Assembly: GCF_052425735.1 (NCBI RefSeq)
Contig: NC_135760.1
Span: forward strand, 28,883,074 to 28,947,073
Direction: 5' to 3'
DNA: 64,000 nt
Source: Oculina patagonica
Lineage: Eukaryota
The notes under the pieces are model-generated. The model was not told the origin of the DNA, did not search any database, and worked only from the letters and a program-made list of their open reading frames with translations. The translations under genes were made by a program, and so were the position numbers. This document shows, one piece after another, positions 4,032 through 62,000 of the stretch. Numbering within the stretch: position 1 is the stretch's first letter; the number at the start of each line of letters is the position of its first letter.

Positions 4032-4106
4032 TTTCTTGTAGCTCAGATGGTAAGAGCGCCCAACTGATATCTGGGAGGCCATGGGTTTGATTCTTGTCAG
4101 GGACTC
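4032..4106 (+). tRNA. tRNA-like sequence (Ile-GAT-like anticodon loop, degenerate T-arm and acceptor); probably a tRNA-derived SINE head or pseudogene, within PELO intron 1
   Basis: TAGCTCAGATGGTAAGAGCG D-arm and anticodon-like loop CTGATAT, but acceptor and T stems do not pair. Followed by a T-run. Flanked by 65-bp direct repeats (3880-3945 / 4139-4205). Confidence 0.4.
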
Positions 4107-7134: not shown

Positions 7135-7953
7135 GTAAGTCATTGCTGGGTTTGTAATTGCAGAAAGCCATTTAATTCATGTTGAATTCAATTAATCCTG
7201 ACTTGACTTATGGCCATAAGCCCTAAGTGGGCAAAGGGCCGGTCAATTAATCCTGAGATATCTTTAAAAATGTCAAATGTTTACTAACGTGACATAAAAG
7301 AGCTCTCAGAAGCTTATAATCAAGGTATATGTGCATTGAAGACAGAGGCGGTGGAGAGTTTTGAAACATGGTGGGCCATCATACTCCAAGCCAAGTGCAT
7401 ACGGATTACCTCCCCAACCCCATGGGGGTAGATCCCACTACTCATATTTCCCAAAATGTCTCTAACAGTGTCTGGTGTGTCCGTAATACAATGTATTATT
7501 CCAAAAAATACCCATACCCCACCCTCAGAAGGTTTTTTGGTTTGCATCCCTCCATCTCGCTAGGAATTCCAGTGAAGCTCGATACTTTTCTTCTCTCTTT
7601 TGGCTTTTGAGACCCCCAGCCCTCTCAGAATTTCCAATGACCTTCCATGGGGTCTCTCTTAGTTCCTTGCCCCCCCCCGGGTGGGGGATAGGGCTGGCCT
7701 TCCATGGGGTGGGTAGAGATATTTTCTGAAACTGCACAATGCAATATTAAACATGGAAATTCAGGCGATCCTGCATCATGGTGCTTTTTGGGTTTTTCTT
7801 TAGATGTTGGAGGGCAGAAAATGTACGCTTTGAAGTCGCCGATGCCATAGGTAGTGTCAAATACAATTTTAACAGATTGCAGACCTCTCCTAGTAGCATT
7901 TTGGGGGAATGAGATTCATTGAAAATCCTCACAAGAAAGACCCTGGGAATGAG

Positions 7954-12643: not shown

Positions 12644-12716
12644 GGCTTCAATAGCTCAGTTGGTAGAGCATCGCACCGGTATCGCGGAGGTCACGGGTTT
12701 GAATCCCGTTGAAGCC
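12644..12716 (+). tRNA. tRNA-like sequence with intact acceptor (GGCTTCA/TGAAGCC), D- and T-arms but defective anticodon stem/loop (CCGGTAT, no U33); followed by a T16 Pol III terminator; likely tRNA pseudogene or SINE head, within NUDT6-like intron 5
   Basis: Body is near-identical to tRNA-Lys(TTT) outside the anticodon arm (ATAGCTCAGTTGGTAGAGCATC…GGGTTCAAATCCC). Flanked by 62-bp direct repeats (12478-12540 / 12737-12799). Confidence 0.45.
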
Positions 12717-13064: not shown

Positions 13065-13210
13065 GTGAGTGTTTTGTTGACAAATACACGCACGCGCTGG
13101 TCGCACAATGAACGAGAAATTTTCTGCAGTATTGAAAATTTCGAGTTCATTGTGAGGCCAGCAAGTGCGTGTATTTGTCAACAAAACACGAACGAACAGA
13201 CTCTAACCCT
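13065..13210. repeat. Perfect-stem palindromic hairpin element (GTGTTTTGTTGACAAATACACGCAC… arms) with a palindromic loop; similar hairpin elements at 14120-14320, 35570-35690 and 39690-39935
   Basis: 13070-13120 is the reverse complement of 13150-13200. The others were verified by reverse-complement reading. Confidence 0.6.
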
Positions 13211-29958: not shown

Positions 29959-30266
29959 GTACGCATGAATAAATAAATAAAAAAAACAAGCAATAGGCCA
30001 TTCCGAGTTACCCTTTGCCTCTGTTTCAAAACGAGTCTACGTGCGAAACCATTCAAATGAAAATGAGTTTGATTTGCATGAAAATGGACCTGTAGGCGAA
30101 ACTCATTTTCATATGACTTGTTTCGCACGTAGACTCGTTTTGAAACAGAGGCAGAGGGTAACTCGGTAATGACCTATTGCAGACAAACAATTGCAGACAT
30201 CTCACATTTTCTTAAGGGAAAGCAAACCTTGGTCAAGCTCAGTACGCGTTTTGTTATTGTTAACAG

Positions 30267-32408
30267 GGAAAGCAAAGCCTGACTTAGAAGCAATAAAAAG
30301 TAAAGTTAAAGACCTTGAGGGCGAAAATCGTGAACTGAAGGAGAAAATACAAGGCATGGAACATCGACTGGCCGTTGTACCACTCTTGGAAAAGGAAAAA
30401 CTTCATTTACAAAAGCAGTTCAATGAACTTGTCCAGGAAAACGAGAGAAAGTCAGCTGAATTGCAATCTTTAAATTTGGAATCGGAAAAGCAAAGGGAAG
30501 AAAAAAATGAACTCCAGATTAAACACGAGGGATTGATGATAGCCATGGGAAACAGCAGAAAAGAACTTGAAGAGCTCAAAAACCAAAACCACTCACTCGA
30601 GGAATCGAAATCTACTCTGGTGCGAGAAAACGAAGAAAAAATTCAATCAATTTCAAAATACCTCGAGGACATTGAAAACTTGACAACTTCGAATACGGTG
30701 TTGGTAGTGCAAGAGAGTCGATCAAGGAGTACTATTTCAACACTATTACAAGGCTTGCAATCGTTAAAAGATTCTGTTGTAAAGTTAAAAGACGAAAACA
30801 AATGTTTACAATCGCAGATTATTGAAAACGGAAGTAAACTCGTTGGGAGAATGAGAAACTGTGTCAATGGTTTGGAAAGAGTTATTGATGGTTTGGAAAA
30901 AGAAAAAACTTGCAAAGTTGAGAAAGAAACACAAGTATCCAACAACATGGAGACGCTTGACAAAGAAACGCAGTGCGATGAGTTATGGTCAGTACACTTA
31001 GAGGAGCTTGAAGAAAGCAAACACTCATTGGAGCTTTTAAAAAGAAGAATAGATGAACTTGAAAACCCGAAAGAAACAAATGAATTGTCCGCCACGCCAG
31101 ACTTAGCGAATGAACTAGATAAGCCTGAACAATGTTTGGGATGCGCCAGCCTTGAAGAGCAATTAATATCTTTAAAATCCAATTTGGAAACGTTTAAGTC
31201 TTCTTTGCAGAAATCAGAAAGCGATCGAGATGAAGCTGTCGAGGAAAGGAACGAGTTGAGACGCGAAGCAAAGTATCTCAAGTATGTCCTTTCTTACCGG
31301 GAAGATGTGCAGTGTTTACAAATGTCAAAACAACAGACCAAAGAGCTGGAGAAAATGGAGACTAACCTTGTAGAAGCAGAGAAAAAAGTAATCGATTTGG
31401 AAGGAGAAGTTGGAAGACTTCATGAAGAAAAGCAAACTCTATTGCTGAGCATTTTAAATCTTCATTCTGGCCACGAAGTGGAAGATGTCAAAGAGGAAGA
31501 CGAAGAAGAAGAAAATATGGCGAGCGAAGAGTCTGAAAATAACGATGAAAATCAAGATAAAGGAGACATGAGTGAAGATTCTCGCACTCCCGACTCCATT
31601 TCTCGCAGAGAACAACTCAAATTTCGATTTCAGTTATCTTTGTCCGAGTCGGAGTACAGTTATAGCTCAGAACAACGAACGGAAGGCGAAGAAGAAAGCG
31701 AGAGTGAAGAAGAAGAGATGGAGAAAGAGATCACCGCCCAAGCTGGAGTGCATATAAAGAAAATTAAAACTGAGAACAAACAGCTTAAAACACGATTGAA
31801 TGAAGCAACTGAAGAGAAAGAGGAGTTGTTATCAAGTCTTGATACGTTGTGCGAAGATTTCGATTCGCTCAAGGCAAACTTTGATAAACTTGAAGAAGAG
31901 CACGCTGTGTTGTCAAAGAGATCCAAGCACGATAAAGAAACCTTGCTTGCCCGGCTTACGGAGGTTGAAATCGATAGAGAAAATATGAGGGATTCCCTTA
32001 GGCAAGTTCAAGACGAGAAGCTAGCGCTTTTGAATTGTCTTGAGATGAGAAACCCTGAACCGATGGCACCACTATCTCCACTGACACAGCTAGATCTTGA
32101 CAAAATCATTGCGCGTGCCCAGTCGTTCACACGAGAGGAAAACAAATCGAATGAACCAACATCGAACGAGGAAGAATCTGAAGCTTCGTCGTCATCAGAT
32201 GCCGAAGATGAGCAGAAAAACAAACTCCAGTCTAATGAGAAGGCCGTGCTACAAACAACTCCAAACAATCGCGTCGGGCTGGAGAGTCAAACAGAAGTGA
32301 CGCCATCTGCTGCTGAGGATAGAGACCTCGCAATTATAGTGGCATCTATTGAAAACGACCTTGGAAAACTCAAAGAACGCCTAAATAAAAGAGGCGGTGA
32401 TGCGTCTG
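30267..32408 (+). CDS. Giant coiled-coil exon (~714 aa; heptad-rich, E/K/L-rich, acidic Ser/Glu clusters)
   Basis: 750-aa ORF in the track. Acceptor ttgttattgttaacag|GG and donor CTG|GTAAGT at 32409. Phase 1 exit matches the 37452 acceptor exactly (G+AC=D). Confidence 0.8.
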
Positions 32409-33107
32409 GTAAGTCATCTACAACGCACGAACTTTTAAGGTAGACTGTGAAAACTTCCTCTGTTGACTGAAGCTTTTTTGGGATATCTGAGAATCTAAAT
32501 CTGAAAGAAGACAAAACTAATTAACAATTAGACTACGAGCCCAAGTTTCTATGAGCAAATAGTCGAGGCGCAGCCGAGTTGACTATCGCTCATAGAAAAC
32601 GAGGGCAGTATCTTTGTTTTAGTAGAAACTCTAAAGGATTGCAGTCCAAACCTACAATATTGTGACTGAAGACAAAAATCAAGAAAATTACCGCTTAAAG
32701 AGCACGCGAGCGCGGACTGTTTTCATCGGCGAGAAATCAGTGGGAGAACCAATCAGATTCGCGGATTTCCATTAGAACACAGCTGAGTTTCTACTAATTG
32801 GCGATAGAGTCGCTTTTCACAGTCTGCTGTTAAGTTGTTGTTATTGTTATTAATTAGTAATTAACAAATCGACCACATTTTTTCATGGTCTACTTAACAA
32901 TTAGACTACGAGTCCAAGTTTTCTATGAGCGAATAGTCAACGAGGCGCAGAAACTCTTAAAGGATTGCAGTCCAAAAATGAAGAAATTTTAATATTCAAA
33001 TGAGCAACGAGCGCGCGATCGTTTTCTATTTTAACAATAGAGTGTTACTGTCGAGGAACTATCGGCTGATAGTTGCCCCGCGGAAATTTGATGTTCTTAG
33101 TATACGT

Positions 33108-33265
33108 AATTGGACTACATGCTGTCCAATTTGGAAATAATTTGATGATAAAAATTCCGAGGGCAGCCAAAATTGGACGAGGCCGTAGGCCGAGTCCAAT
33201 TTGGCTGTCAGAGGAATTTTTTGAATCTAATTATTTCCAAAATTGGACAAGCATGTAGTCCGGTT
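33108..33265. mobile_element. Palindromic MITE-like hairpin element (CCAATTTGG / AATTGGACA cores); related fragments at 34000-34120
   Basis: actacatgctgtccaatttggaaataatt (33112-) is the reverse complement of aattatttccaaaattggacaagcatgtagt (33232-). Confidence 0.5.
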
Positions 33266-34180
33266 ACATATTAATTATATAGCTTGTAGTGCAGTCTGGA
33301 AAACATGTATGTTACGCCGAAGATCTTCGGCGTGGAGCGTATTTCATAGGGATTAGTCAATCCAGCATAAACAATAAACTTATGTCCAGAACGGGAAAAG
33401 CAATCAACAATAGTAGGCATAACACAGCACATGCAACTCGCCCAAAGCATTGTCTTCGCAAATAAAACTTAAACAAAACAGTGCAATTTTATTCACCTGA
33501 GTTTGCGAAGCTTGCTACAAAGTAAGTGAAAGCACTGCATCAATCAATTAAAGTCGTAAACAAAGTGTCCGAAGAGCTTTACAACTTCTTGAATCTGACA
33601 TACTCCTTTCCACTATATCGTTCGTACTTCATCGCCGTCTTTTCTTTTCGAATTTCAGCAAAAAACGACAAAGAATTGCATCTAGCTCATGGCGATGAAT
33701 ATCTGACAAATTTCTTGCTTCGCTTCGCTGCACTTACGTTCACCCAAGTTTTGTACTATTGGAGGTGTTTTGCTCTTGGTTTTTGCTTCTTAGTGTAGCT
33801 AGCTCCTCTTCTGACAACGTAGAAAATTTCTCTTTGTTGTTACTATTGCTGAAAAGCTCAAAAGGAATAGAAAAACGTAGCAAACTTGCCTTATAAAATT
33901 CCGCCATTGTCGACTAAAACAGGAAAAGTTTACAGGGCTGACGCTATGCTTTGTGCTAATTGGCTAATATCCGTCACATTTGTTTTTTCTTCGATTTGAT
34001 TGGCTGAGACGAAACTGTCCAATTTTTCTTAAATTGGACAGATTGTGAATTGTACCTGAAAGTCCTAATTGAAACTATCCAAATTTAATCCCAAATTGGA
34101 CAGTTCCCAGAAATTAAGGAAAAATAGCTCCGCTGACAATATAGGATTTACTGACGGCTATATAATTAAAACAAATAATT

Positions 34181-34682
34181 ATTAGCCCGAGAAGCGAAGC
34201 TTCGAGGGCTAATATGCTAGTTTGTTATACTTATAGTTCACCACTAAATTTTCTCCGATTCTGATTGGTTTAAATTGAACACGTGACGCGATAGTGCCCG
34301 TCCGCCGGAGGGCACTATCAGCCCTTATAGTTCACCACTAAATTTTATTCCCTTCTGATTGGTTTAAATTGAGTACATCAACATGTATATTGCCCTCCCG
34401 TGAAAAATGCCCGGATCGATAGTGCCCGCCCGTGACTGTTTTTTGTAAACAAGCTGCCTGCAACAAAAAACCCAACCAAATTCACTGCATTCAGTGGGTT
34501 TCTCGTCTGGTTTTGTTTCGTTTGTTAAATTTCGGCTTTCAATTGAGTTTTTCATCCTCAAAAGTAAAAAATTCAAGATGCTTGTTGTGTATGTGCGCGC
34601 GGAAGAAAATTTAGTGGTGAACAATAAAGACAATAGAGTGTCTAGCATATTTGCCCTCGAAGCTTCGCTTCTCGGGCTAATA
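34181..34682. mobile_element. MITE-like element with ~40-bp TIRs (ATTAGCCCGAGAAGCGAAGCTTCGAGGGCTAATATG…) and internal direct and inverted subrepeats, in the large intron of the coiled-coil gene
   Basis: 34186-34225 is the reverse complement of 34640-34680. The internal unit 'ttatagttcaccactaaatttt…ctgattggtttaaattga' is repeated twice plus one inverted copy. Confidence 0.6.
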
Positions 34683-37451
34683 TTTGTTTTAAGAACATCA
34701 AATTTCCGCGGGGCAACTATCAGACCGATAGTTCCTCGACAAAAACACTCTATTAGGGCTGATAGTATTTAAGTATTTAACAAAAGTATTTAACAAAAGC
34801 GACGACTTTGCCGAAACTTTGCCGGTGGGACGTAAAGATTCCGGTCCGACAAATAAAAACGACCATAATACAAAAGAAGATGAACAAATATTCAAAGAAT
34901 AACAATTTTAATTGCCTTTTCCTCTCTCGTTGAGTGTGTCTATCGCTTGAAGCGAGCAAGACCTTTTTCTTTCTGAACTGAAGATCTTGTTAGCGCTCGT
35001 TCACTGAACATCAACAGTCCGCTGCCGATTCGCTATCACTGTTTTCTAAGTTAGAACAAAAATTCAAAAGCCTTTTCAATTTTCTTTCGACAGATTACCT
35101 AAGTAGAAGTCCAATCCTGAATTGCGAAAACAAATGCGTACTCTGATTCAAACAAAACGGGATGAAATTCGCTTTCATTCAAACGTACACATCTTTTAGC
35201 CCGCGCGTGTGCGTGGCGTGATCTGACGTCACTTTCATGTTCTATTTAACAAATAGATTTCATTTTGCCGTGCGTCTGTTCAGTAATAGATCACAGATGA
35301 CGTCAAAATGTGGTATGAACAGTTAAATGCTTCGAAAGGTGAACGATGCTTGGCGTATTGTTTTTCACTGAAGATTTGTAATTAAGCTGAACTTTTTTGC
35401 TTTGTTGTGGCCCCGAAAGTTTGAAAAACTTTGCCGACAACTCTGATCTGGACTATGAACTCTGATCACGCGCGCGAGTCACACCACCGCGTGACGTCAT
35501 CCATGTGTCTGTACTCTGATAGATCATAAAAAGTAAGAACCAATCAAAATGCGCGTAGAATTCAGGTTATTATATAAAAGAAAATAATGCACGCTTGAGG
35601 TCTATAAAAGCTGCTAGTGGATGCCCGAGCCGTCAGCCGAGGGCATTCAGCTGCTTTTCTAGACCTCAAAAGTGCATTATTTTCTTATAGGACATAGGAA
35701 AACCATCTTCTAGTGGGTTTAGAATATAGCATTAAAAAGAGCACAGAACTTACAAGACTCGCGGCCGCTCACGGCATTTTACAAACGCACGCAACATTGG
35801 TGAAAGTGAAAGTTTAGTTTATTGTTTTCTTTGGCGGCTTCTTTATAAATAAACCAAGATACCATTTCATTCATATTTCCTATTTATATAGTCCTTTCTC
35901 CAACTACCAAAAGATTCTCACAAAGCCGACAAATCTAGTAGACATTTTTACGCATTCAAGTGTGGTTAAGCCTACTTCAATTTCATTCAAATGAAAAATT
36001 TTCATGCGTTCGTTTCGCAGCAAGTTTTTCAAATTCGCCTCTTACTCGATTTAAAAAGAACAAAAGTGGAGTGTTCTGTCTTCAGATTGTGGCTAAAAAA
36101 GGTTTCTTACCTCAAAGCGTTTCTAGAGTCCGGCTTGTTTTGCTAAATAATTTCCAATCAATTTCGGGCAGTTCACGGCAAAATAGTGGCGTATACAACT
36201 CCAAAGAAAAACAACAAATTTCAACGATTCTTTCTTCATCTGTCGCTTCCTGTGGCAGTCTTACTTCCATTCAAGCAGGTAAAACGTTTCTGATAAAAAC
36301 TCGCTGCTTTAAAGCATCATTTAAACAACAAAAGAAGAGAATAGATGCGAAGTCGACGAAGTCGTTCAGCGAAATTCGACAAACAATTCGCACATCCGGG
36401 GTACCGGGCTTCTATAGTTTTCAGCTATGTTCTATTAAAAATAATGCCCGCTAGAATTCCATCGCGCGTATACAGCGGCTATATTCTAAACTCTCATCGA
36501 CCATAACTTTGGACCAATCAGCGCACGAGAATTCTCTCGGTTATGGTATAAAACATTTTGTTTTTACAGTGTCTCGATTATCATTAACTTTCTTCACATA
36601 CTCGCGTTAAAAATATCAATACCTCTTTGTTTTTAACAACAAACTTTCGTCTGTCAAGGCCCTAAAATGCACCCATTTAGGAGCCAAACGTATGCATTTG
36701 ATAACGGAGGTCCCTTCTGCACGCACAAGCGGAGCCCCAGACATTTAGTAAACCCTTCGAGCTGCAAAATTTCGGTTGTCACTTGATTGTTTATTTTAGT
36801 TATCAGTTCTTTAACAACAGGGGTATCAGAGAAAGCGGGTAAAGTAGAGTAAAGTAGGGAAATATCCTAGTGAAACAAAAGAGGAAATAACCCAAAAGTA
36901 TGGAAAATGAGCCTTTAATTAATACTCTAAGCCGTTTTCTGTGCAACTTGCCTCGCAGTTTTATTCATTGATTTGGTCGTTCGTTCGTTCGTTTATTCTG
37001 GCACCACTGCAAGCCGGACAGGTTGCACAAAGAATTGCTTAGTGTAATCCCCCAAAATAGTTGCGAACCTTCTTCTTGTAATGTCTGCTGCAACGAAAAA
37101 GTTGTGAGACGTTCATTTCAGAGTAAAACTATAAAACTATGCAACTTGCGTCTCAACGAATTGCGATACAAGTTAATAATAATAATAATAAAACTTTATT
37201 TAAACTCGAATTAAGAGTAGCTTAACAAGCTAATATTTCCGAGAACGAAAAAGATAACAACAAATTAAAATAAATATTACTATTGAAATTTGAAAGTTGC
37301 ATGACAGAAAGTCAGCGCTTTTATAAAATCAAATCTGGTTAGTTTTGCACCATTCTTACATACCCTGCGAATGCAGACGAATCGAAAGAAAGTGAAAAAT
37401 AGGTAGAAATCCTTATTGTACCAGAGCTCATCCATATATTTTTAATCGTAG

Positions 37452-55141: not shown

Positions 55142-55255
55142 CTGCTCCAAAAGAAGAGTCTTTTTCCCTCTTGAAGCGAGGTATCGAGCTGTCGAGCTTC
55201 CCTCCACACCAGCACCTACAACACATACGTCGAATAACTCTCCAGAAGCCGCCAT
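55142..55255 (-). CDS. PIPOX: PIPOX/sarcosine-oxidase-like FAD oxidoreductase exon 1 MAASGELFDVCVVGAGVEGSSTARYLASRGKKTLLLEQ
   Basis: GxGxxG FAD-binding fold. 38 aa exactly as in human PIPOX exon 1 ([38 protein letters not shown]). Donor CAG|GTATTA. Confidence 0.85.
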
Positions 55256-57084
55256 GTTGGCTCTAAAGAAACTGACCCTCGAGACCTCAACCGGCTGCTC
55301 GGTCAGCGGTGTGTCGCCCGAATTCTGGTAGGTACGTGGTGTATGGTCCTGAGTCCTGTCCTCTCGGTTCTCTGTCGGTTACAGTAGGGATACGGTAGTC
55401 GATACTGTAGGGATACGAGGCCGTGGATGGCTAAAAAAACTTTTTCCATTGCCCGTTTGCAAAATAATACAAGTTCGGCTGGTATTACTTTCTTTTTTAC
55501 TGTTTCTCTACAAAAGCGGTTAGGTCCGGACCAATTTTTTGACGGGTCCTTTTTTCTCTATCGTGTAAACGCACCTGTTTAATAAACGAGCAAGAGTGAT
55601 TAAAACATGAAGCGCAGTCAAGTGTTTTAGACTTGATAAATCACGATTAGTACAGCAGCTTGGTCCAAAAAAATTAGGCAAATTGTGCATTTTTACCTAA
55701 AATTATGAAACTGTGAAGCCACTGAGACCTAGCACCTCAGATTTGACCCATGACGTCACTAAAATGTCAATAACGTCACACCGTGAGAAATGTCTAGTAA
55801 AGCTTAAAATTTCTTACTGAAACGCTTAAGAGGAAAACTCGGCGTCTATTTGGTCGTATTAAAAAGCTTTCAATCATTTCATAAACTGCAAAGGAACATG
55901 GCTTAGTGCATTACCTAATAGATAGACTGGGACCTTTGACCTTGGTGACCATTTAATGTCAAATGGTTTGTTAACCTTACTAAAATGTTCGGAAAAATCT
56001 ATATTGTCGTAAAAGTTTGCAAGCACCTCATAAACTACTAAAACACACAACTAAATTGATTTTTGACTGCAGAAGAACAAAGCAGTACGCTTTGAGCTTA
56101 TTTGATGAGCCTCTACATTTGACCTTGGTCAGTGACCTTAAAATGTTAAAGAGAATAATAAGCCTTTCCGCTGGCTGTTTAAAATGATTTCGTGGCATAA
56201 CAAAAGCAGATCGTAGGCTGTTCCGAAAACGCGGAGTGCGGAGTGCGGAGTCCGAAAATGCGGAGTCTGTAAAAAAAAAAAAAAAAATGAGAATGCCTGC
56301 ATTGCCAGCTTTATGTACAATTTACCATTTCTGTGCACTAAGTGGAAGGGATAATGTATGAAGTGGATATTTCCTGTTTCTTTCTTATCAGTAGCATGTT
56401 TAACTTGCGACAATTGATTGTTGTTGACAAGAAACAGTTAGCCGCGTTAAACGGTTGCGTTTTTTACTTAAGACATTTCTATCTCCAGACAATAAGTTGC
56501 CGTTATTGTTTTGTCTTTTTGTTCATAGTTAGGGAATTTTCCATGCACTATGTATGGAAACACACGAGAATGAAAGCGTTTTTTGTGTAAACAACGAACC
56601 GAGACAGTGTACATCTAACCCGTATCAAAATATACAATGTTACTTTTCAGCAACAGATGTGTCATTTGTAGTGAAAAGCAAAAGCTATTGCAAGCTTGAC
56701 ATAACCATTACCAGTTATCACGATTGTCCTTGACACAGACGTGTTTCCATGACACCTGAAATAAACGGTTCCCAGGTTCCGAGTTCCCAGCGAAAAGAAC
56801 TTACAATCAAAAGAATTAGTATTCTTGCACTGAAAACATGATTTCAACCAAAAATGACATGTCCACAGATGGATGTAGATATCCACGGCACAAAGGCGGT
56901 TAAATGATTTTTGGGGAAATTTTTATTCCTCGCGAAGCGAGGCCGAAGGCCGAGCGTAGCGGGGTGTATAATTTTGTCCCTCAAAGGGCTCAGGCGGGAT
57001 GAAATCTCGTGTGGAGTTTACGGTCATGTATATATATATATATATTTGTGAGCTTGGTGTCTGGCGGAAATGACGTCACACGGC

Positions 57085-57172
57085 CGCCGCGCGCTGGTGG
57101 CCTAATGGTAAGGCGTCGAACTTGAAATCAGATCTTCGGGACTGAGGGCGCGGGTACGAATCCGGCTAGGGT
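57085..57172 (+). pseudogene. tRNA-Ser(TGA)-like pseudogene inside the left arm of the large inverted repeat
   Basis: GTGGCCTAATGGTAAGGCGTCGAACTTGAAATC closely resembles the tRNA-Ser D-arm and anticodon loop (CTTGAAA), but the anticodon stem and T-stem are broken. Followed by T13. Two further GGTTCGAATCC T-arm-like modules with T-runs follow at ~57205 and ~57330. Confidence 0.45.
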
Positions 57173-58922
57173 TTTTTTTTTTTTTCCTTATTTTTTTTGT
57201 GGGTTCGAATCCTGAGCCTTTCATTTTTATCGTTTTTCTTTTCGGATTAAAATAACACTGATTTCCACATAATACTCCCTCAACGCCTATTCAGGCTATA
57301 AACCTTTCATCGCCATCAGGGGCGCGCGGGCGGAGGGTTCGAATCCTCCTGCCGTTCGTTCTTCTTTTTTTTTTTAATGCCCTCAAATAAATGTCCAAAC
57401 TGCGACTATCCAATAATTTGTCGATGATTTTGAAAATAGCCTGCGCTTCCCAACGCTTTTTCCTCTTTACGAACCTGAAAGAGCCGCCATCTTCAAAGCG
57501 GAGTAGACCCTGGGAACGAGGGTGTCGCGGCCATGCCCGTTACTAATTTTTAACAAATATATCTTCCTGCCTACTGTGGAAAATTGAATATGTACAATGT
57601 TCAACTTCAAATAATCCACTCCTTATTTATAACACCACCCCCCCCCCCCCCGCCTCCCCAACCCAGAGCTTCGCGAGGCCCTGCGAGTCACGTATTACTA
57701 GTTTATTTATTTTTTGCTTTTTTATTAAGTGCTGCGGAGTAGCGTATCGTTGTTGTACATTTTTCTTTAATTTGAACTTCGTCTAGCATAAAAGGCGGAG
57801 TTGAAAAGTGCCACGTTGCTGATGGTTCTTTTAGAGAGTTTACTGTGTATTCGTGGAAAGCCAGGCGAAGCAACATGGCTTTAGGCTCTTTGGTAAAAAA
57901 GAAACTAAAGTTATTTGAAGTTTACGAGTAGTGATTCCAAAAAATTGGAAATACTGTTTGTTAATATTTCGTGAAACGTGAACTGCAGTCATTTTTGAAG
58001 AAAGAAATGGCCGCGGTCTGAACGATCCGCTTCACTGCTTCGGGCGAAGCTGTACAAAAATGGGATCAATTTAGGTTTCTGGGAAACTGCTCACCTACCC
58101 CTCCCCAAACCTAACATTTTGCCCAAAGCGATAAGTAAGGGTTAATGTTAGGTTTGGGGAGGGGTAGGTGAGCAGTTTCCCAGAAACCTAAATTGATCCC
58201 AAAAATGTGTATTATTTTTTTTAATATTTAGTTTAATATTTATATATTTTTCATTTTATTTTAATTTTTTTATCACACTTTTTTTATTTTATTTTATTTT
58301 ATTTTATTTATTTTTTTTTTTTACAGACTCCGCATTTTCGGACTCCGCACTCCGCACTCCGCGTTTTCGGAACAGCCCAGATCGTACAGTATACTAGTAA
58401 TACGTGACTCGCAGGGCCTCGCGAAGCTCTGGGTTGGGGAGGGGGGGGGGGGGGTGTTATAAATAAGGAGTGGATTATTTGAAGTTGAACATTAATTGAA
58501 TTGTACATATTCAATTTTCCACAGTAGGCAGGAAGATATATTTGTTAGAAATTTTATTTCAACGGGCCCGCGACACCCTCGTTCCCAGGGTCTACTCCGC
58601 TTTAAAGATGGTGGCTTTTTCTGGTTCGTAAAGAGGTAGAAAGCGTTGGGAAGCGCAGGCTATTTTCAAAATCATCGACAAATTATTGGATAGTCGCATT
58701 TTGGACATTTATTTGATGGCATAAAAAAAAAGAAGAACGAACGGCAGGAGGATTCGAACCCTCCGCCCGCGCGCCGCTGATGGCGATGAAAGGTTTATAG
58801 CCTGAATAGGCGTTTAGGGAGTATTATGTGGAAATCAATGTTATTTTAATCCGAAAAGAAAAACGATAAAAATGAAAGGCTCAGAATTCGAACCCACAAA
58901 AAAAAAGAAAAAAAAAAAAAAC

Positions 58923-59010
58923 CCTAGCCGGATTCGAACCCCCGACCTCAGGTCCGAAGATCTGATTTCAAGTTCGACGCCTTACCATTAGGCCACCAGC
59001 GCGCGGCGGC
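58923..59010 (-). pseudogene. tRNA-Ser(TGA)-like pseudogene, mirror copy in the right arm of the inverted repeat
   Basis: Reverse complement of the 57085-57172 unit with a few substitutions (GGGGGTTCGAATCC versus GCGGGTACGAATCC). Confidence 0.45.
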
Positions 59011-62000
59011 CGTGTGACGTCATTTCCGCCACACACCAAGCTCACAAATATATATAGAAATATATATGACCGTAAACTCCACACGAGATTTCATCCCGCC
59101 TGATCCCTTTAAGGGACAAAATTATACACCCCGCTACGCTCGGCCTTCGGCCTCGCTTCGCGAGGAAAAATATACACTACACACTGAACTGTGTTTTACG
59201 CTATTCCAAACAGTCGTGGACTTCTTGAGTAACAACAAGACTGTATCATTGATATTACTTGGCATCACTGCGATGGCTTCAAATGAATTGCTAGCTTATA
59301 GGAAACACAGTCATGAATTCCACAAGTCTTCTTACCACTTACCAATGAATGAAAAGAGGGTGTCGGGTGGGCATAAACGACAGGTACATCTACAGATCAA
59401 TGGAGTCACAGAGTTAATTTAGAAGAATTTACTAGCAAAGTAAAGGGTGTGGACAGGCGACTTCTTACGAGACCCTAGCAGTATTTCCTCTGTGTTGACG
59501 AAAGTAAAACGGAATTCTTCAGTTTTCTGTTCCAGCGAATTACAAGAATTCTATTTCATACTCGTCAATAGAAAGGAACCACTTCCAGTCTTCAGGAATC
59601 TCTGTTGTGAGCGTGTCATGGGTGACTTGTTTCATATAGTAAATTAATAAAGATGGTAAATTTTAAGCTCGGTAATAAATAATGAAGATGAAGTATTCAA
59701 CACTTTGCTAGGGGCTAAAAATTTCTACGCTCGTGGGTGAACAAAACGACCCATATCTGCTCTTTCGTGTAAGTTCGTAAGTTCAACTTCAATTTTCAAT
59801 CACTGTTCGTAAGAAATAGAGTTTCTGTCCCAAATATATATTAAACAAGGTATAATTAAACAAGGTATAAAGTTGAGGAAAGAATAGTTTTGTCAAATTA
59901 TCAAGAAAAAAAACGGTTTGATAGTTTAATTGAAAGACAGGGGCTTAAAGCTGCTCAGAATCACGGAATCACGTCTTAGAGGTTTCAACTTAGGAATGAA
60001 CGTTTATTCGTTTGTCTCACGATAGAATCGCTTTGAGATGGTTTCAACTTTTTCAAAATTTTCTGGGGGGCATACCCCCAAACACCCCTAGGGGCATGGA
60101 GCCTGCAGCTCATAAACTACAGCCTCGTGGCCATTTGGACTCCCACTTTGTAAAATTCTGCCTATAAGCCTGATACCCTCGGGCTTAAACAAGATAGTAA
60201 ACAAAAATATTTGTAAACAGCCACCCCCCTTTAAAATATCCTGGATATGCCCCTGAGAGTTTTTTATCAACTACCCGTCGAGTTGTCATTTGTTTCCTCA
60301 AGTTGAGTTCTTACAACTGTTTGGAATGAAGACATGTAAAACAGATGCCCATTTCCTCGCAATGTAGATTCTGGAAAAGGGTTAAGGATAACAGATGTAG
60401 TAATGTAACTAATGTACATGAGCACACTGTTGATACAGACGTCACTGTTGGCCATTGCTATATTTGGGAATATAATCACAATAAATTGTAGGAGGCTTTT
60501 GAGAGAAGAGCAAATTTAAAGTACATTCCTGTACACCAGATTGGTAAATTGAGTGAGCTACAGATGTACTTGTCTTTCATGTACAGTCAGGGAACGATAT
60601 TGTCTCTGCATTTAGTGTTTGGCAGTTCGGGAGTAATAAAAAGGTTCGGTTAATAGAACACATGGCTGAGATTTCCGGAAGTCACCAATGCATTTCACGA
60701 CACTCGATTTTCAATTGAGTGTCCTAAAAGCAAAACCAAAGTTTTTACTCTGGTCAATCACAAAGGACACAAACAATTTAGTCAATCGGAAGACGAAGCA
60801 AAACTGACAAGAAGCGTAGGAAAACCTGAAAACATGATCGTTTGAGTTTTACTTCTGATTGATCAAGAAAGAGACGCGAGTTTTTTTTTAATCAATCATC
60901 ACGCGTAGAAATGCAAAACCAAAGTAAACTTGAATTACTTACGACATTCAAATAAAAACCGCTGTAACGTTACAGTCCTGTTGTCACTGAAGAACTGTGG
61001 TGCTACTCTCTAAGCGCATTAACACGAGTCCATATCCTCAGCTTCCCGACCCCTCCAACAACTGGGGCTCAAAACAAAGCAATGGAGGGTGTAAAGCACC
61101 GTGCTCTGCCTTCGTAGAAGCTTCAGTTTTTCCTCTGACTTATATTTAAAGCTGCAAGAAGGGTTCCCGGAAAGGGTTGCACAGGACGATGCAAGTGTGT
61201 AAAAACATGTCGAGAGGTAATGTAAATAAATCATAAACGAGGCTGCAGCCTATTAGGTGGGAAATAAAGAAATAATAGATTTGGGTTTCGATGCCTGCTG
61301 AAATGCAAAATGGGAATTTAATTTATTTCAGTCTCACTCACAGTTTTGACATTGGCTCCAGACCTCTCGCTCTCGTTCGAAGACCGAGCGCGTTCGCAAA
61401 AGATACGACTGTATCTCTGCAGTCTACCCGTCTCACTTCAACAACCAGTTTCATTCTTCGACCTCATGCGATCAAGAGGGAAAATATTTTAATTTTTCCT
61501 GTCTACAATCCTTAAAAATAATGCGTAATTCTCATCCCACGAAAACAAGAGTTTCATTTTTGATTTACAATTGGGAATTTTTAATTCCCCATTCCCAAAC
61601 AACAACAGCAAAACAAGAACAAGCAAATTAGAAAAATTCAAACATCAGCCCTAAAAGAGGTCGCATTCACCTACGAGAGGTAGTCGCTGAGATGTTCCGA
61701 CTATTGTGTGGTATTTTGGAAAGTGGTCGCAAACAGGAGGAGGGTCGCACAGGGAACGTTTTACGGTGATGTAAGGGCCCCATAAAAGCCAAAATGAAAA
61801 ACAAAAAAAACACGATTTCGTGTCCAAGTTTGCAGATCGAATAGAAGACAGAAGTCTGCGATTTCATAAAAAAAAAAATGATTAGTCAGAGTGTGTTGTG
61901 ACAGAAAAGGTTTTTTTTTTTCAAAATTTGTCGATGTCAGCCGTTATACGTCGGCTTACGCGTTAATTAAATGCATTACGATGAACCCGGCTTTGGTTTC

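Follow-up and report, generated by a model that had tools for sequence, protein, structure and literature searches.

Positions 56,207 to 59,170 of a 64,000-nucleotide stretch of the genome of Oculina patagonica (assembly GCF_052425735.1, contig NC_135760.1, positions 28,883,074 to 28,947,073 of the forward strand; this whole stretch is called the window here, and positions are counted from its first letter) contain two ~780-bp arms in opposite orientation, a perfect hairpin in the spacer between them, a second inverted pair that is offset from the arms, and tRNA-like units within the arms. Do these features constitute one structure, or several that happen to lie together? A previous reading made from the letters alone (the sequence-only reading) had taken them for a single compound inverted repeat of ~2.9 kb, possibly a foldback transposon, a cruciform-prone site or a locus of hairpin RNA transcribed by RNA polymerase III (Pol III). 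All the features described were found in the sequence, with small corrections of coordinates, and the proposed link to mobile elements was retained, but the single structure was not, as its parts were found to belong to separate insertion units. The locus is probably a nest of three non-coding mobile-element relics in a genome of cnidarian type, namely a transposon with terminal inverted repeats (TIRs), E1, a miniature inverted-repeat transposable element (MITE), MITE H, and a repeat, B (Table 1). The large inverted repeat would accordingly seem to be a by-product of the nesting and no functional unit, a view that we hold with reasonable but limited confidence. Nothing suggests that the compound structure acts as one unit; the elements of the nest are ordinary non-autonomous mobile elements, and their families may be unannotated.

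Target-site duplications of E1 and MITE H

The offset inverted pair was confirmed to be present, but it forms the TIRs of an independent element, E1, and not a part of one compound structure. The two TIRs of E1 are 71 nt long and complementary at 70 of the 71 positions (99%), and both are abutted, without any shift of the boundary, by CAGATCGTA, which was found in direct orientation with 9/9 identity. As a control, 11 other inverted-repeat pairs in the window were scanned with boundary shifts of ±4 nt allowed, and the direct repeats flanking them did not exceed 5 nt. A perfect direct repeat adjoining inverted termini on both sides is the mark left by a cut-and-paste insertion. E1 was shown to be a non-autonomous cut-and-paste DNA transposon with CAGATCGTA as its insertion site, the 9 bp of which were duplicated. 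Its computational removal restores ...AAAAGCAGATCGTA^CAGTATACTAGTAATACG..., i.e., the right arm alone; the expected site lacking E1 reads ...AAAAGCAGATCGTACAGTATACTAGT..., and the terminus of E1 reads GGCTGTTCCG.

No transposase gene was found in E1, the longest open reading frames (ORFs) of which (40–91 aa) had no Pfam match, and because of this lack of a transposase its superfamily is not assignable. Duplications of 9 bp fit Mutator-like elements (MULEs) or Merlin elements, and the length of the E1 duplication is compatible with either type. Non-autonomous TIR transposons of these two types resemble E1 in the long TIRs (71 bp in E1) with short tandem subrepeats, the perfect 9-bp duplication, the absence of coding capacity and the unrelated sequence between the ends, whereas E1 differs in that no second family member was seen in the window. 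A further copy of the E1 TIR was not detected in the rest of the window, and the pattern of heptamer blocks gave 0 matches in IMG/VR. The heptamer in question, GCGGAGT, was matched 13 times in the window compared to 2.6 times expected, with 12 of the 13 matches located within 56231–58600 (eight in the E1 TIRs, two in the internal segment Y and one in each arm). Two other interpretations of parts of E1 were rejected. The offset pair could be aligned as the 3′ end of a poly(A)-tailed retroposon with a 5′-truncated left copy, but the reverse-complement alignment then needs an indel and a mismatch, compared to 9/9 identity for the direct repeat; and segment Y, for which divergence from a copy of the TIR region was considered, gave a local alignment score of 21 versus 18 ± 2.3 in shuffled sequences.

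The central hairpin, reported as flawless with 57 bp, does have perfect arms, of 58 bp (58061–58118 / 58144–58201) around a 25-nt loop, with a folding energy of −122.6 kcal/mol (z = −20.7), but it is not part of the big repeat. When 2 nt were trimmed from each end, CAAAAATG was found on both sides with 8/8 identity, and the centre of the resulting element (58131) and that of the big repeat (58046) are 85 bp apart. This element, MITE H, has TIRs that are identical at 56/56 positions and begin with GGATC, and it contains no ORF. MITE H was shown to have inserted within E1 later, duplicating CAAAAATG; the expected site lacking it reads ...CTGTACAAAAATGTGTATT.... It resembles MITEs in general in its small size, perfect TIRs, flanking duplication and lack of an ORF. 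The 8-bp duplication is shared with hAT-like MITEs, from which MITE H differs in starting with GGATC and not with the usual hAT terminus. MITEs have been documented in coral genomes, where the piggyBac-related CMITEs of ~100 bp duplicate TTAA (PMC2872659); the size of MITE H (137 bp) and its 8-bp duplication do not fit, and identity with the coral CMITEs was rejected. Other copies of MITE H were not found in the rest of the window, and the pattern of its arm had 0 matches in IMG/VR. Similar short palindromes are located at 13069, 14156, 30003, 33130, 35575 and 46230, and the genome is therefore rich in such elements. Comparison of the palindrome with Rfam microRNA families gave weak scores of 36.7–39.3 bits (gathering scores 69–72), and scores of this kind arise from any long perfect hairpin. 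A hammerhead or other ribozyme, or a microRNA, was rejected, as no Rfam match came near the threshold.

The ~780-bp arms, repeat B

The arms were shown to be a non-coding repeat of ~780 bp, B, which is present twice in opposite orientations, once within E1 and once just outside it (the latter called B′ in Table 1). BLAST showed 92.7% identity over 797 columns (E=0), the inverted-repeat search split the arms into blocks that were 92–98% complementary, and the MAFFT alignment contained 728 matches, 37 mismatches and 22 gap columns in five indels (substitutions 4.8%). The stretch in common comprises 779 and 781 bp, similarity stops at both ends, the sequences beyond are unrelated, and the spacer measures 687 bp. 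The arms are present as described, except that the right arm starts at 58390 and not at 58380. As the left arm lies within E1 and the right arm outside, the arms are not the termini of one foldback transposon. No target duplication was found flanking the outer ends (56924 / 59170), nor was any direct repeat of ≥6 nt found flanking the right copy. An exact look-up of a 118-aa ORF that spans the outer edge of the right arm found no record. Weak matches to the 5′ end of the arm at 55165 and 24380 were rejected as unrelated on reading the sequence.

Each arm contains a tRNA-Ser(UGA)-like unit and two additional T-arm-like modules, as previously described, except that the run of T following the unit is T14 and not T13. 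Both units score below the gathering score of Rfam RF00005 (22.5 and 23.4 compared to 29 bits), neither was called by ARAGORN by default (they were found only at a relaxed threshold, -ps80), and two of the five pairs of the anticodon stem (TCGAA/TCAGA) are mismatched. The T-arm-like sequence GGTTCGAATCC, with at most one mismatch, occurs seven times in the window compared to 0.69 expected, and six of the seven occurrences are located in the arms. The decayed tRNA-Ser-like gene and the two tRNA 3′ fragments in B are probably captured host sequence. B is similar to tRNA-derived short interspersed elements (SINEs) in that A and B boxes lie within a tRNA-Ser-like segment and a Pol III terminator is present, but differs from them in that the tRNA part is internal, beginning 168 nt inside the arm homology, in that a target duplication and a tail of A-rich or simple-repeat type are both lacking (the last letters of the arms are ...ACTAGT), and in that T14 would end the transcript before the rest of the unit. 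B is therefore no SINE in the usual sense. The sequence-only reading had itself stated that its compound structure would be refuted if the arms were two independent insertions of a common SINE without shared flanks; this largely applies, as the flanks of the arms are indeed unrelated. Promoter-like motifs are also found in the arms (57026–57085 and 57470–57500, and the matching parts of the right arm): the tRNA-like unit is preceded by a (TA)8 tract (TATA) and by TGACGTCA, and the opposite strand carries AAGATGGCGGC followed by a GT donor-like site. These motifs suggest that 5′-end sequence of the host, either captured or resident, forms part of the arm.

The termini of B, TCCTCGCGAAGC...CTAG, were compared to those of known element types. 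The 5′ end CCTCGCGAAGC matches, over 11 nt, an inverted GCTTCGCGAGG that ends 24 nt before the 3′ end. Terminal matches of ≥11 nt were obtained for 0.3% of random 780-bp segments of the window and 0.06% of shuffled termini (p about 0.0006–0.003), figures that apply to an element with two known copies and a 5′ sequence that is itself a palindrome. Each copy has a T before its start and terminates in ...CACGTATTACTAG with a further T behind it, so that both can be read as T|TCC...CTAG|T without duplication, which carries little information given the T-rich flanks. Group-2 Helitron-like elements (HLE2) are characterized by short TIRs (about 11–18 nt), a 3′ stem-loop and insertion between T and T without duplication (PMC11417382). 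B is probably a mobile unit, and its layout is that of a non-autonomous HLE2. Compared to HLE2 (Helentron/Helitron2) and DINE-1 (PMC11417382, PMC4067079), B is alike in the absence of a target duplication, the T on both flanks, the 11-nt 5′ sequence inverted ~24 nt before the 3′ end and the captured-looking host fragments, but it differs in its weak 3′ stem-loop, in the two copies known and in its 3′ CTAG, which is a hallmark of the canonical Helitrons (HLE1). The putative membership of B in HLE2 is unproven, and no Rep/Hel ORF was found in the window. HLE1 itself (5′ TC, 3′ hairpin with CTRR, insertion between A and T) was rejected; CTAG is present, but T, and not A, precedes both copies, and the hairpin is weak.

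How the two arms came together

We consider it fairly probable that B was mobile and landed twice in the same 2-kb neighbourhood, in E1 and beside it, by a local hop or by clustered insertions. Several results weigh against this. That B is a dispersed family we infer from two copies only, and the further copies that the sequence-only reading had proposed to look for were not found in the window, IMG/VR, the JGI metagenomes or the predicted proteins searched: BLAST of each part of the nest against the rest of the window and the contigs of relatives gave nothing significant, the tRNA-like 23-mer had 0 matches in IMG/VR and JGI metagenomes, and the arm without its tRNA-like parts, translated in six frames, gave no match among 5.8 billion proteins. 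The 11-nt match of the termini is at the bottom of the published range for TIRs of HLE2, and the 3′ stem-loop is weak, as the last 54 nt fold with −3.0 to −3.1 kcal/mol (z = +0.2 to +0.5). Besides, the location of the right arm only 3 nt from the E1 duplication would be a coincidence under independent insertions. This last point is what a local inverted transduplication would explain, an account that we regard as rather unlikely, though it is the main rival, in which the right arm was resident, E1 inserted beside it, and 780 bp of the right flank of E1 were copied in inverted orientation into E1 as filler, either by excision of E1 and gap repair or by a template switch during replication, the copy running to the broken end of the flank. 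It agrees with the right arm having its inner end just beyond the right duplication of E1 while the other copy lies within E1, with the absence of any other copy in the 64 kb or the collections searched, with the T-rich sequence at both left-arm junctions, which would allow microhomology, and with the promoter-like host features of the arms. The divergence of the arms (3.2–4.8%) is not significantly higher than that of the E1 TIR and duplication (1 mismatch/80; P = 0.10–0.27), which agrees with such a copy; divergence does not decide between the two accounts. Transduplication by Pack-MULEs and the filler left by abortive gap repair in Ac/Ds elements are comparable in that a non-autonomous TIR element holds a copy of non-transposon sequence; here, in contrast, the putative donor is the immediate flank of the element itself and the piece captured is itself bounded by transposon-like termini. 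An arbitrary template switch is unlikely to start and stop at the 11-nt terminal/subterminal inverted match, or to start just where a 5′ module (TTTATTC...GCGAGGCCGAAGGCCGAGCG) begins in two unrelated eukaryote-like contigs (L039 and L020). Furthermore, a filler of 780 bp is long for abortive gap repair, and the copy does not adjoin the junction but lies 685 bp away from it. Should the left arm nevertheless be a copy of the flank of E1, the locus would show a DNA transposon that has captured sequence while the donor still lies next to its copy, which is rarely seen.

Of the structures that had been proposed for the repeat as a whole, a single foldback or long-TIR transposon extending from 56924 to 59170, with the arms as its TIRs, would account for long inverted arms and for similarity that ends sharply at their outer edges, and the arms are like those of FB-type foldback transposons in being long and inverted and in containing internal short repeats. 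We consider it very improbable, as no target duplication was found at the outer ends, as the arms are of two different insertion units, and as the ends of the intact E1 interleave with the arms, one lying outside the left arm and the other in the spacer, which is impossible for one unit. Very little probability can likewise be given to a functional locus of hairpin RNA or small RNA, in which a Pol III or Pol II transcript would fold over the arms or the palindrome. In the right-arm unit, the A and B boxes are still close to the consensus and T14 is present, and the palindrome is both very stable and weakly matched by microRNA families, but these matches are far under threshold and the palindrome carries a target duplication of transposon type. 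Pol III terminates at T-runs, and the T14, T8 and T11 runs of each arm would stop it well before the second arm, so that no Pol III hairpin RNA is expected; the tRNA-like units would give, at most, short Pol III transcripts ending at T14 (~85–95 nt), and the RNAs from the two units would be of the same sense and not complementary. Cruciform extrusion of inverted repeats is disfavoured by long spacers, and for the big repeat the 687-bp spacer argues against a cruciform-prone site. Finally, inverted duplications are known to result from failures of long-read assemblers, and the sequence-only reading had named such an artefact as a possible source of the structure; we regard this as hardly credible here. 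The arms differ by ~5% (37 sites) and by five indels, and the structure is crossed by two nested elements whose duplications are intact; it therefore is no assembly artefact. Two insertions of a mobile B stay our preferred reading of the arms.

Table 1. Features of the transposon nest (positions in the window).
Feature	Position	Strand	Basis or remark
E1, non-autonomous TIR transposon, 2,162 bp	56216..58377	+	TIRs and 9-bp duplication; holds left arm, MITE and T-rich tract
E1 left target-site duplication CAGATCGTA	56207..56215	.	Identical 9-mer abutting TIR
E1 left TIR, GGCTGTTCCGAAAACGC(GGAGTGC)n...GTCTGT, then A17 run	56216..56286	+	Inverted-repeat search; TRF: GCGGAGT x3
E1 internal unique segment X	56287..56923	.	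Without repeat or protein match
Left arm, copy B, inside E1	56924..57702	+	BLAST, inverted-repeat search, MAFFT
20-nt hairpin motif GCGAGGCCGAAGGCCGAGCG near 5′ end of B	56937..56956	+	
Degenerate tRNA-Ser(UGA)-like unit, B box mutated (GGTACGAATCC), then T14 (57172–57185)	57091..57173	+	Rfam 22.5 bits
Second T-arm-like GGTTCGAATCC remnant, then T-rich stretch	57202..57212	+	
Third T-arm-like GGTTCGAATCC remnant, then T11	57336..57346	+	
E1 internal unique segment Y, with GCGGAGT also at 57734 and 57795	57703..58054	.	
MITE left target-site duplication CAAAAATG	58055..58062	.	
MITE H, 137-bp palindrome, perfect 56-bp TIRs, 25-nt loop	58063..58199	.	The central hairpin of the sequence-only reading
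MITE right target-site duplication CAAAAATG	58200..58207	.	
T-rich low-complexity tract running into right TIR	58208..58306	.	TRF
E1 right TIR	58307..58377	-	Inverted-repeat search
E1 right target-site duplication CAGATCGTA	58378..58386	.	9-mer abutting TIR
Right arm, copy B′, outside E1, 3 nt past E1 right duplication	58390..59170	-	
Degenerate tRNA-Ser(UGA)-like unit, B box intact, own-strand T14 58908–58921 (A14 on +)	58920..59002	-	Rfam 23.4 bits
20-nt hairpin motif near 5′ end of B′	59137..59156	-	

The 20-nt hairpin motif and the surroundings of the nest

The 20-nt motif GCGAGGCCGAAGGCCGAGCG, present near the 5′ end of both copies of B, can form a hairpin, GC-GA-GGCC-GAA-GGCC-GA-GC, in which G.A pairs occur in tandem and the loop is GAA. 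Exact matches were found in at least 120 JGI metagenome contigs and at least 120 contigs of bacterial and archaeal genomes, amounting to more than 240 prokaryotic and viral loci in all. Six loci were found in IMG/VR, compared to none for the reversed motif, none for a shuffle and one for a stem variant. The motif usually caps a short stem of variable sequence and was found in haloarchaea, Xanthobacteraceae, Acidobacteria and Patescibacteria (Candidate Phyla Radiation, CPR), in some cases inside ORFs; among the matches listed, the preceding base was A in 168/248 and a tRNA gene was located within 300 nt in 18/248. The CPR instances have a conserved context of ~150 nt (...AAAATCGCGCGCGCAAAAAATAA-motif-GTAAAGATGGCGCGGCGAGTGGGTGGGGGCACTCGCCGCGCTACCTTTGAAATATAGTTCGAATTTTTTCG...; positions 7850–8100 of contig L049 and about 40 similar low-GC loci, e.g., in L046, L031, L069 and L011), which sometimes occurs twice per contig and on the opposite strand shows GC hairpins followed by T-runs, resembling terminators. 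This context had no Rfam match even at E<5, no Rfam family covers the motif, and it was not found in the literature searched. Related sequences were observed at the tips of two other hairpins: the MITE-like palindrome at 33130–33241 has a 1-mismatch variant, GAGGCCGTAGGCCGAG, at its apex, and in a related contig of cnidarian type (L001:9160–9270) the exact 16-nt core GAGGCCGAAGGCCGAG is located at the tip of a perfect ~40-bp stem. It is conceivable, but to us improbable, both that the left arm is an inverted copy of the E1 flank captured in repair and that the 20-nt hairpin is an undescribed module that occurs unchanged in animal repeats and at hundreds of loci in bacteria, archaea and viruses.

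The window has a eukaryotic character, with a GC content of 38.6%, a CpG observed/expected ratio of 0.83 and long coiled-coil exons. The best relatives of a 750-aa ORF at 30191–32443 are 72–75% identical and located on large ENA, JGI and Logan contigs, one of which is from JGI metagenome 3300010035 (Ga0126343), according to the literature a sample of the coral Cyphastrea sp. These relatives suggest a cnidarian source, probably a stony coral or something related to it. Just upstream of E1, at 55862–56160, a ~149-bp unit is duplicated in tandem, its copies having diverged (~77%). Further upstream (55240–55335) lies GCCGCCATG, with its ATG at 55254; the frame after it is open, and near 55328 there is a donor-like GTAGGT. 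The region resembles a first coding exon on the + strand, and if it is one, the transposon nest would sit in its first intron. Another nested inverted repeat is located at 33066–34723, where perfect 34-nt arms lie 1,590 nt apart, the palindrome is continued by the flanks and a second pair (34173–34220 / 34642–34689) is enclosed; this is probably another transposon nest. Two tRNA-like matches above the Rfam threshold were detected at 4032–4105 (38.2 bits) and 12645–12716 (47.9 bits), with the anticodons GAT (Ile) and GGT (Thr), respectively, which are unusual among eukaryotic nuclear tRNA genes, and these units may be tRNA-derived repeats or pseudogenes.

As it stands, the locus matters little in itself. 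The 20-nt motif, which is found letter for letter in different domains of life and is covered by no Rfam family, could matter if pursued. For inverted repeats of this kind, the locus illustrates that ordinary non-autonomous elements, by nested insertion, can imitate a compound structure that looks designed, and that target-site duplications, when checked, resolve such structures.

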